Positions 33,001-36,000 of a DNA stretch of 64,000 nt are shown here, one piece after another. The position numbers were made by a program. The stretch lies in the NCBI RefSeq assembly GCF_044324875.1, contig NZ_CP172185.1, one strand, 5' to 3'. The DNA comes from Escherichia coli (GTDB lineage: Bacteria > Pseudomonadota > Gammaproteobacteria > Enterobacterales > Enterobacteriaceae). The first letter of the stretch is position 1, and the number at the start of each line of letters is the position of its first letter.

Positions 33001-36000
33001 GGACGGGCAGAAAAAACATTATCAGGATGAGTTCGCGGCTATCCCGCTGGTGCCAAAAGCAGGCGATCGCGATGAGCCTGATATGATGCCAGCCGCCACC
33101 CAGGCGCTGCCGACGCAGCCGCCGGAAGGCGCAGCGGAAGAGGTGCGGGCAGGTGATGCCGCAGCACCGTCGCTCGATCCGGCCACTATTGCAGCCAATA
33201 ACACCGAGTTTGAACCGGAACCTGCACCGGTCGCCCCACCGAAGCCGAAACCGGTGGAGTCGCCTAAACCGAAGGTTGAAGCACCACCTGCGCCGAAGCC
33301 GGTCGTGGAAGAAAAAGCAGCGCCAACGGGTAAAGCCTATGTTGTACAACTGGGCGCACTGAAAAATGCCGATAAAGTGAATGAGATTGTCGGTAAGCTG
33401 CGCGGTGCCGGTTATCGGGTTTATACGTCGCCATCCACGCCAGTGCAGGGTAAAATTACCCGTATTCTGGTTGGGCCAGATGCCTCGAAAGATAAGCTGA
33501 AAGGTTCGCTGGGTGAGTTGAAGCAACTTTCTGGCTTAAGTGGTGTGGTAATGGGCTACACGCCGAATTAATACGGTCTTGCCTGATGCGACGCTGACGC
33601 GTCTTATCAGGCCTGCGCAGGAGTAGAACCGTAGGTCGGATAAGGCGTTTACGCCGCATCCGACAGTCGTTGCCTGATGCGACGCTGGCGCGTCTTATCA
33701 GGCCTACGCAGGGGTAGAACCGTAGGTCGGATAAGGCGTTCACGCCGCATCCGACAGTCGTTGCCTGATGCGACGCTGGCGCGTCTTATCAGGCCTGCGC
33801 AGGGGTAGAACCGTAGGTCGGATAAGGCGTTCACGCCGCATCCGACACGCATTGCACGATGCCGCAAAGGCATAAAAAGTCGATGGCGTTGAATATTTTT
33901 TCAGCGCCATTTTTATTGATGCGTGGGAAGGAAATCCCTACGCAAACGTTTTCTTTTTCTGTTAGAATGCGCCCCGAACAGGATGACAGGGCGTAAAATC
34001 GTGGGACACATATGGTCTGGATTGATTACGCCATAATCGCGGTGATTGCTTTTTCCTCTCTGGTTAGCCTGATCCGCGGCTTTGTTCGTGAAGCGTTATC
34101 GCTGGTGACATGGGGTTGTGCTTTCTTTGTTGCCAGTCATTACTACACTTACCTGTCAGTCTGGTTTACGGGCTTTGAAGACGAACTGGTTCGAAATGGG
34201 ATTGCCATCGCGGTACTGTTTATCGCTACCCTGATCGTTGGTGCTATCGTGAACTTCGTGATAGGCCAGTTGGTAGAGAAAACGGGGTTGTCAGGCACCG
34301 ATCGGGTGCTGGGCGTCTGTTTCGGTGCGTTGCGCGGTGTGTTGATTGTTGCCGCCATTCTCTTCTTTCTCGACTCCTTTACCGGGGTGTCGAAAAGCGA
34401 AGACTGGAGCAAATCACAGCTGATCCCCCAGTTCAGTTTTATCATCAGATGGTTTTTTGATTATCTGCAAAGCTCGTCAAGTTTCTTGCCCAGAGCGTAA
34501 GTGCTCTGAGATGTGGCTTAACGAGGAAAAAGACGTATGTGCGGTATTGTCGGTATCGCCGGTGTTATGCCGGTTAACCAGTCGATTTATGATGCCTTAA
34601 CGGTGCTTCAGCATCGCGGTCAGGATGCCGCCGGCATCATCACCATAGATGCCAATAACTGCTTCCGTTTGCGTAAAGCGAACGGGCTGGTGAGCGATGT
34701 ATTTGAAGCTCGCCATATGCAGCGTTTGCAGGGCAATATGGGCATTGGTCATGTGCGTTACCCTACGGCTGGCAGCTCCAGCGCCTCTGAAGCGCAGCCA
34801 TTTTACGTTAACTCTCCGTATGGCATTACGCTTGCCCACAACGGCAATCTGACCAACGCGCATGAGTTACGTAAAAAACTGTTTGAAGAAAAACGCCGCC
34901 ACATCAACACCACTTCCGACTCGGAAATTCTGCTTAATATCTTCGCCAGCGAGCTGGACAACTTCCGCCACTACCCGCTGGAAGCCGACAACATTTTCGC
35001 CGCCATCGCTGCTACAAACCGCTTAATCCGCGGCGCGTATGCCTGTGTGGCGATGATTATCGGCCACGGTATGGTTGCTTTCCGCGATCCAAACGGGATT
35101 CGTCCGCTGGTACTGGGAAAACGTGATATTGACGAGAACCGCACAGAATATATGGTCGCTTCCGAAAGCGTTGCGCTCGATACACTAGGCTTTGATTTCC
35201 TGCGTGACGTCGCGCCTGGCGAAGCGATTTACATCACTGAAGAAGGGCAGTTGTTTACCCGTCAATGTGCTGACAATCCGGTCAGCAATCCGTGCCTGTT
35301 TGAGTATGTATACTTTGCTCGCCCGGACTCGTTCATCGACAAAATTTCCGTTTACAGCGCGCGTGTGAATATGGGCACGAAGCTGGGCGAGAAAATTGCC
35401 CGCGAATGGGAAGATCTGGATATCGACGTGGTGATCCCGATCCCGGAAACCTCGTGTGATATCGCGCTGGAAATTGCTCGTATTCTGGGCAAACCGTACC
35501 GTCAGGGCTTCGTTAAAAACCGCTATGTAGGCCGTACCTTCATCATGCCGGGTCAGCAGCTGCGTCGTAAGTCCGTGCGCCGTAAACTGAACGCCAACCG
35601 CGCCGAGTTCCGCGATAAAAACGTCCTGCTGGTCGACGACTCCATCGTCCGTGGCACCACTTCTGAGCAGATTATCGAGATGGCACGCGAAGCCGGAGCG
35701 AAGAAAGTGTATCTCGCTTCTGCGGCACCGGAAATTCGCTTCCCGAACGTTTATGGTATTGATATGCCGAGCGCCACGGAACTGATCGCTCACGGTCGCG
35801 AAGTAGATGAAATTCGCCAGATCATCGGTGCTGACGGGTTGATTTTCCAGGATCTGAACGATCTGATCGAAGCCGTTCGCGCTGAAAACCCGGATATCCA
35901 GCAGTTTGAATGCTCGGTGTTCAACGGCGTCTACGTCACCAAAGATGTTGATCAGGGCTACCTCGATTTCCTCGATACTTTACGTAATGACGACGCCAAA

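Follow-up and report, generated by a model that had tools for sequence, protein, structure and literature searches.

Array identity and anatomy

The spacer between dedD and cvpA in a 64,000-nt stretch of Escherichia coli DNA (NCBI RefSeq assembly GCF_044324875.1, contig NZ_CP172185.1; hereafter the window) carries a bacterial interspersed mosaic element of class 2 (BIME-2) made of three tandem 91-bp units, each a Z2-type repetitive extragenic palindromic (REP) sequence followed by an inverted Y-type REP. Taken as a whole, the evidence makes it very probable that this BIME-2 is one allele of a variable-number locus, that it lies in the 3′ untranslated region (3′UTR) of dedD, and that its most likely function is that of REP325, the BIME-2 of the yjdM-yjdN spacer. 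By definition, BIME-2 elements combine z2 and y REPs in inverse orientation, joined by a short linker and present as tandem copies whose number varies between strains (PMC3333891). We assign the array to this class because its palindromes match the Z2 and Y consensus and reference sequences, alternate in inverse orientation, stand in tandem and vary in number.

Structurally, Tandem Repeats Finder called a single array at 33579-33847 with a period of 91, 3.0 copies, 97% matches, 0% indels and a score of 510, and an independent repeat search placed copies at 33579, 33670 and 33761, again 91 bp apart, with identities of 100, 96 and 92% over 102 nt. A preliminary description of this DNA, made from sequence alone, had reported a three-unit tandem BIME array with two inverted REP palindromes per unit; both searches recover the array and its period, and the palindrome matches given below agree with that account while narrowing the class to BIME-2. 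The unit starts proposed there (33580, 33671 and 33762) have the correct spacing and are displaced by one base, the phase of a tandem repeat being arbitrary. Pairwise, the three units differ at one to four positions, and the repeat continues for 15 nt beyond the third unit into a degenerate fourth head (Table 1). The array is wholly extragenic, inside the 440-bp dedD-cvpA spacer.

Each unit reads TTGCCTGATGCGACGCTGGCGCGTCTTATCAGGCCT, a 16-nt linker, GTAGGTCGGATAAGGCGTTCACGCCGCATCCGACA and about 7 nt, the 16-nt linker being tail-to-tail and the 7-nt linker head-to-head; the S, s, l and r linker motifs were compared by length and by integration host factor (IHF) site only. A Z2-type pattern matched the plus strand with zero mismatches at 33581, 33672 and 33763, and a Y-type pattern matched the minus strand, also with zero mismatches, at 33631, 33722 and 33813, so that the two types strictly alternate in inverse orientation. 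Neither pattern had a match in 100 dinucleotide-preserving shuffles of the window. Against the published reference sequences (PMC11208160; Z2 reference GCCTGATGCGACGCTGGCGCGTCTTATCAGGCCTACG), units 1, 2 and 3 have 2, 0 and 1 mismatches to Z2 over 37 nt and 2, 3 and 3 mismatches to Y over 35 nt, with two of the Y differences forming a compensating stem pair (GCCGG..CCGGC to GTCGG..CCGAC, C:G to T:A). The Z1 reference had no match within four mismatches in the array region, and the IHF consensus (WATCAANNNNTTR) had none in the array. Folded as RNA, the region as a whole has a z score of −7.8.

The unit is a member of a family scattered over the genome: with the array included, a 701-nt query has a median of 27 matches in each E. 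coli genome, and a query of the flanks alone has one. Two solitary REPs occur elsewhere in the window, a Z2-like copy at 15456-15492 (plus strand) and a Y-like copy at 20773-20807 (minus strand), each with four mismatches to its reference.

Copy-number polymorphism

The locus was found in 5425 of the 5426 complete E. coli genomes. Its copy number was read with a query made of the flanks only, whose match span gives array length directly, and frequencies were taken from one systematic sample of 60 genomes. The spans in this sample fall on a 91-bp ladder, with no unit in 1 genome, one unit in 37, three in 8, four in 7, five in 2 and six in 1, the remaining 4 being off-ladder or interrupted. Two-unit alleles are found in O145 RM12581 and TOK-001, and a seven-unit allele in strain 536, outside the 60-genome sample. 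K-12 MG1655 carries one unit and O157:H7 records carry three or four, with four O157:H7-like records sharing a four-unit allele. The preliminary description had guessed that the array might be polymorphic and had proposed comparing its copy number across E. coli genomes; that comparison yields whole-unit alleles of 0, 1, 2, 3, 4, 5, 6 and 7 units.

Base-by-base decomposition of the repeat-bearing alleles gave an identical right junction and a nearly identical left one (TACGGTC, with a single substitution in two strains; TACGGTC stands upstream of the array in 11 of 13 alleles inspected), and alleles differ by whole units that bear their own substitutions. Among the ten records whose flanks are nearest to those of the window, eight (99.3-99.6% identity) have five units. 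Strain A10, which has the closest flanks (99.6%), is one of these five-unit records: the window's units correspond to its units 1, 4 and 5, with 4 and 5 identical and unit 1 differing at two positions, and the two alleles are therefore separated by an in-register gain or loss of 182 bp. The sediment strain SC418 (NZ_LR778147.1) carries one unit, though it is the closest genome to the window over the next 6 kb (99.6%). Because SC418 has one unit at this identity, and because the close-flank five-unit records also differ from the window and O157:H7 records differ among themselves, the array changes faster than the sequence around it. The window's exact allele was absent from the 5,426-genome collection, where the best full-length match was 98.0%. 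Over positions 34000-40000, SC418 was also the sole genome at least 99% identical to the window among the 5,426 (all others at most 98.9%), so the window's E. coli lineage is sparsely sampled.

Could the copy-number differences be assembly artefacts? This is unlikely, since the genomes are complete, the steps are exactly 91 bp and carry unit-specific substitutions, and related strains share alleles. In short-read assemblies, a 273-bp tandem repeat of this kind may collapse. Records named E. coli ATCC 8739 differ at the locus, with three units in NZ_CP043852.1 (4.80 Mb) and one in NC_010468.1, NZ_CP022959.1 and NZ_CP033020.1 (4.74-4.75 Mb), which could reflect a mislabelled strain or a change in the laboratory.

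Besides the whole-unit series, some alleles are rearranged. The off-ladder allele of E50 has lost 20 nt, including most of a Y REP, and that of 2021CK-00607 has lost 23 nt across a tail-to-tail junction, fusing two REPs into one longer palindrome. In O157:H7 TR01 (NZ_CP033605.1), the second unit is a 205-nt composite with a long AT-rich linker and an IHF-consensus-like TATCAATGAGTTA on the minus strand; this is a BIME-1/RIB-like piece within a BIME-2 array, probably acquired by recombination with another BIME locus. Mechanistically, unit number may change when the 91-bp direct repeats undergo slippage or recombine unequally, or through strand transfer catalysed by the REP-associated transposase (TnpA-REP, or RAYT).

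Probable position in the dedD 3′UTR

Downstream of the array, and overlooked in the preliminary description, lies an intrinsic terminator of folC-dedD (hairpin −18.0 kcal/mol, z = −6.4). Its conservation was assessed by scanning each sequence for a hairpin followed by a T-run, at loci found through the conserved stretch around the PurR box, and in 101 of 114 Enterobacterales species such a structure is present no more than 75 nt ahead of the PurR box. Stem sequences vary between genera, and RNAalifold returned no consensus for the terminator region across 107 distinct Enterobacterales sequences, the stems differing too much between genera. What is conserved is therefore the structure: the folC-dedD terminator is present as a hairpin and T-run in most of these species. 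The REPs themselves were also checked as intrinsic terminators; none of their hairpins stands directly before a T-run, and the scan found only the hairpin at 33882-33911.

Beyond the terminator, the PurR site ACGCAAACGTTTTCTT, read on the opposite strand, is the site AAGAAAACGTTTGCGT published for cvpA-purF-ubiX (PMC3159470). The 30-nt stretch TACGCAAACGTTTTCTTTTTCTGTTAGAAT at 33939-33968, which holds this operator and the likely −10 element, is exact in at least 120 Enterobacterales species representatives, including species of Escherichia, Yersinia, Erwinia, Dickeya, Pectobacterium and Edwardsiella. A scan for the sigma-70 consensus did not call the cvpA-purF promoter. The open reading frames and the PurR site bear out the earlier placement of the array between the dedD stop and the PurR-regulated cvpA-purF promoter. 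Since the array stands between the dedD stop and the conserved terminator, it is most probably transcribed as part of the folC-dedD 3′UTR, judging from this arrangement of features, and does not belong to the promoter region. We accordingly suggest that it be annotated as a BIME-2 in the dedD 3′UTR and not as part of the cvpA-purF control region.

The dedD allele of the window lacks four residues (EPKP, 12 nt) of the 663-nt K-12 allele in a proline/lysine-rich linker, with one E-to-S change nearby. Both dedD lengths are found among RefSeq genomes, so this coding repeat is polymorphic too.

Table 1 Features of the dedD-cvpA region in the window (CDS, coding sequence; REP, repetitive extragenic palindromic sequence).
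Feature	Coordinates	Strand	Description
dedD CDS	32921..33571	+	651-nt allele, 216 aa; TAA stop; GTG start inferred from RefSeq alleles; RefSeq 'cell division protein DedD'
Gap TACGGTCTT	33572..33580	+	9 nt, from the dedD stop to the base of the first REP stem
BIME-2 array	33579..33847	.	Units 33579-33669, 33670-33760 and 33761-33847; Tandem Repeats Finder and repeat family
Z2-type REP, unit 1	33581..33617	+	2/37 mismatches; RNA hairpin −21.4 kcal/mol, z = −5.9
Y-type REP, unit 1, inverted	33631..33665	-	2/35 mismatches; RNA hairpin −18.8 kcal/mol, z = −5.1
Z2-type REP, unit 2	33672..33708	+	37/37 identical to published Z2; holds the exact IS621 target, 33697-33707
Y-type REP, unit 2, inverted	33722..33756	-	Pattern and reference match
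Z2-type REP, unit 3	33763..33799	+	1 mismatch
Y-type REP, unit 3, inverted	33813..33847	-	Pattern and reference match
Degenerate REP head TTGCACGATGC	33852..33862	+	Right flank; near-direct repeat of each unit's head TTGCCTGATGC; the zero-unit allele joins exactly here
Intrinsic terminator of folC-dedD	33882..33916 (hairpin 33882-33911)	+	12-bp stem, 6-nt loop, T-run; terminator scan
PurR operator ACGCAAACGTTTTCTT	33940..33955	+	cvpA-purF-ubiX promoter; matches the published ChIP-chip motif (PMC3159470)
Candidate −10 hexamer TAGAAT	33963..33968	+	cvpA-purF promoter; read by eye, inferred
cvpA CDS	34012..34500	+	ATG at 34012; open reading frame; RefSeq 'colicin V production protein'

Functional interpretation

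Functionally, the closest guide is REP325: a 2026 preprint reports that it makes the mRNA of the upstream gene yjdM more stable and that it terminates transcription partially, in a Rho-dependent way (bioRxiv 10.64898/2026.03.23.713779). By analogy, the window's array would act in RNA through its six stable hairpins, which would block 3′-to-5′ exonucleases, thereby shielding the folC-dedD message that precedes them, and would cause some attenuation of read-through into the cvpA-purF promoter with its PurR control. In DNA, the Y REPs would be preferred sites of gyrase cleavage. We posit that mRNA protection, attenuation of read-through and a gyrase site together are the most likely function of the array, which may affect mRNA or DedD level, as may its copy number.

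Several observations weigh against this interpretation. The effects of REPs are context-dependent across the genome and do not change mRNA half-life uniformly (bioRxiv 10.64898/2026.03.23.713779). A clinical isolate carries a zero-unit allele and 37 of the 60 sampled genomes carry a single unit, so that both the array and any given copy number are dispensable. In the E. coli 3′-end map of Adams et al. (PMC7815308 supplement), ends fall inside cvpA and folC and none in the dedD-cvpA spacer, a blank that is evidence neither for nor against transcription of the array. In 35 distinct units, drawn from 15 alleles or species, pairing in the REP stems is 98.2% and stem sequence hardly varies, substitutions falling in loops and linkers, and the signal of a covariation test on these units was weak (2 compensatory cells, with 20 of 500 shuffles as good). 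With stems so nearly invariant, conservation cannot separate a role in RNA from a role in DNA or from the mechanism by which units are copied. Separately, a literature search found no paper that names dedD, cvpA and extragenic palindromic sequences together, and the supplement of the REP325 preprint, where dedD and cvpA appear only as rows of a differential-expression table, is uninformative on the locus.

Direct functional evidence for the locus is at the DNA level only and concerns the one-unit allele of K-12, which is listed as 'BIMEs2 2437498-2437581 <cvpA-<dedD' in the Topo-seq study of Sutormin et al. (PMC6379681, sheet DS3). There, gyrase cleavage sites at this allele number 0 with ciprofloxacin, 2 with rifampicin plus ciprofloxacin, 1 with microcin B17 and 0 with oxolinic acid, and most BIME-2 rows of the sheet are all zeros (PMC6379681). 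These published sites uphold the link to gyrase drawn in the preliminary description. One may go further and take the main role of the array to be at the DNA level, as a strong, transcription-independent gyrase site that relieves supercoiling between folC-dedD and the tandem cvpA-purF, with more Y REPs giving more capacity. The sites found at the K-12 allele under rifampicin plus ciprofloxacin and under microcin B17 speak for this, as does the general over-representation of gyrase cleavage in BIME-2, its preference for y over z2 REPs and its rise when transcription is blocked (PMC6379681). The locus has no cleavage site with ciprofloxacin alone or with oxolinic acid, however, the published counts belong to a one-unit allele, and a gyrase site is compatible with the RNA-level model and does not exclude it; we regard a mainly DNA-level role as possible but rather improbable. 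About as tenable is the view that the array is neutral, selfish or passively copied, REP pairs having been seeded by TnpA-REP/RAYT and then expanding and contracting by slippage with no selected function at the locus. TnpA-REP does cleave and recombine BIMEs in vitro (PMC3333891), copy number runs from 0 to 7 without obvious constraint, the zero-unit allele is viable, internal deletions that destroy REPs exist (E50 and 2021CK-00607), near relatives differ in unit number with barely any difference in their flanks, and unrelated tandem palindromes in the same gap of other genera fit a permissive landing site. Yet the element already stood at its exact site before E. coli parted from E. albertii and E. 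whittamii and has been kept there, at least one unit is present in about 98% of the genomes sampled, the stems are 98.2% paired with substitutions concentrated in loops and linkers, and gyrase cleavage has been measured at the K-12 allele, all of which speak against pure neutrality.

Two narrower proposals concern single REPs or single units. The first REP could lower DedD translation, its hairpin stalling the terminating ribosome and leading to mRNA cleavage and rescue by transfer-messenger RNA, an effect reported where a REP lies 15 nt or less from a stop codon (Liang, Rudd and Deutscher 2015, as cited in PMC12306157). The distance from the dedD stop to the first REP stem is 9 nt, within that limit, and is constant in all repeat-bearing alleles examined, but stalling would hinge on the first REP only, leaving the array and its variation unexplained; we consider this unlikely. 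Far less credible still is that the units are genes for small RNAs like nucleoid-associated RNA 4 (naRNA4), which with HU would bridge REP cruciforms and condense the chromosome. The Rfam model for naRNA4, RF02564, does match the plus strand with 83.0 bits at 33634-33704 and 80.8 bits at 33725-33795 (gathering score 59.5; the minus-strand matches, at 56.4 and 55.6 bits, fall under this threshold), and naRNA4 derives from REP325, which has the same Z2/Y architecture. But a single Y/Z2 pair of a BIME-2 underlies RF02564, so that a match only restates family membership, and deletion or over-expression of REP325 left nucleoid size unchanged, with no stable HU-cruciform-naRNA4 complex and with REP-REP contacts neither enriched nor HU-dependent (bioRxiv 10.64898/2026.03.23.713779; the authors of this 2026 preprint include the laboratory that proposed the naRNA4 model). 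Rfam naRNA4 matches at this locus should hence not be taken as a small-RNA gene.

A further idea is that unit number acts as a heritable, fast-switching dial, each Z2/Y pair strengthening folC-dedD protection, cvpA-purF insulation or gyrase capacity. If so, selection on the expression of DedD/FolC or of purine biosynthesis, and not drift, would account for the unit numbers of different lineages (mostly one in K-12-like strains, four in O157:H7 and three to seven in strains like 536). We hold this to be quite unlikely, the present evidence bearing neither way on a tuning of expression or gyrase action by unit number. The locus nonetheless offers a natural series of alleles that runs from 0 to 7 units and precedes a conserved terminator, which could be used to relate REP number to mRNA stability, read-through and gyrase activity.

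Age, loss and insertion

Evolutionarily, the element is older than E. coli, for Z2/Y arrays of two units lie at this site, between the same flanks, in E. albertii and E. whittamii. Pseudescherichia vulneris has no REP at the site, and Citrobacter species carry a single palindrome or a single pair there, of a type of their own. The zero-unit allele of the clinical isolate W46 reads TACGGTC joined to TTGCCCGATGCCGC, and its junction falls inside an 11-nt near-repeat present as TTGCCTGATGC at the head of the first REP and as TTGCCCGATGC in the right flank. As the outgroups carry the array and W46 is nested within E. coli, we infer that this allele arose by secondary loss, through recombination or slippage between the near-repeats, and complete loss may in general occur between the first REP head and the 11-nt near-copy in the right flank.

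Between the dedD stop and the terminator, other genera have tandem arrays of unrelated palindromes, all of the CCCTCTCCC...GGGAGAGGG type: 59 nt in 7.2 copies in Pseudocitrobacter faecalis, 43 nt in 3.4 copies in Enterobacter sp. ENT03, 46 nt in 2.4 copies in Lelliottia and 83 nt in 2.3 copies in Serratia sp. H1w. The dedD-terminator gap has been colonised independently and more than once.

The array is also a target for a mobile element, IS621, a member of the IS110 family with a bridge-RNA recombinase. The published natural IS621 target, ATCAGGCCTAC (11 nt; PMC11208160), has one exact copy in the array, in the second Z2 REP, and copies with one mismatch at 33606 and 33788. In strain B25FEP (NZ_CM177971.1), IS621 sits in a Z2 REP of the array, immediately after TTATCAGGCCT and inside ATCAGGCCTAC (1628-3026 of the extracted stretch), which confirms that IS621 recognises the REPs of the array as REPs. 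The array may thus be viewed as a ready landing site, or insertion hotspot, for IS621.

Comparison with known systems

The class of element, its polymorphism and its link to gyrase are all published, and the locus is already in a published list of BIME-2 elements; copy-number polymorphism of BIMEs has been described since the 1990s (Bachellier et al. 1997, as cited in PMC3333891). Added here are the exact class of the array, the range of its alleles (0 to 7 units), its age relative to E. coli, and a terminator that probably puts it in a 3′UTR. Beyond correct annotation, the importance of these additions is slight.

The window's array shares its locus, junctions and unit with the catalogued cvpA-dedD BIME-2 of K-12, which differs in having one unit where the window has three. 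With the BIME-2 elements of E. coli at large it has in common the inverse Z2/Y pair, the tandem arrangement, a location outside genes where a transcription unit ends and a number of copies that varies between strains; its tail-to-tail linker is short (16 nt). BIME-1, or RIB/RIP, elements (Y and Z1 with a long L linker and an IHF site) likewise place an inverse REP pair at the 3′ end of a transcription unit, but the window's array holds no Z1 REP and no IHF consensus and is tandem, not single; a BIME-1/RIB identity was rejected on the absence of a Z1 REP and an IHF site. As at bacterial variable-number tandem repeat loci, whole units are gained and lost in register and alleles differ both between and within lineages, with the difference that the window's unit belongs to a family dispersed across the genome and is not specific to its locus.

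REP325 provides the most instructive comparison. On inspection of its sequence, Z2 is followed by inverted Y in the direction of transcription with a period of 100 bp, and both arrays show this alternation directly after the stop codon of the upstream gene. The period is 91 bp in the window because both linkers differ, and REP325 has 12 REPs against the 6 of the window's array. REP325 also lies inside an operon with no terminator shown downstream, whereas the window's array precedes a conserved intrinsic terminator and a separately regulated promoter.

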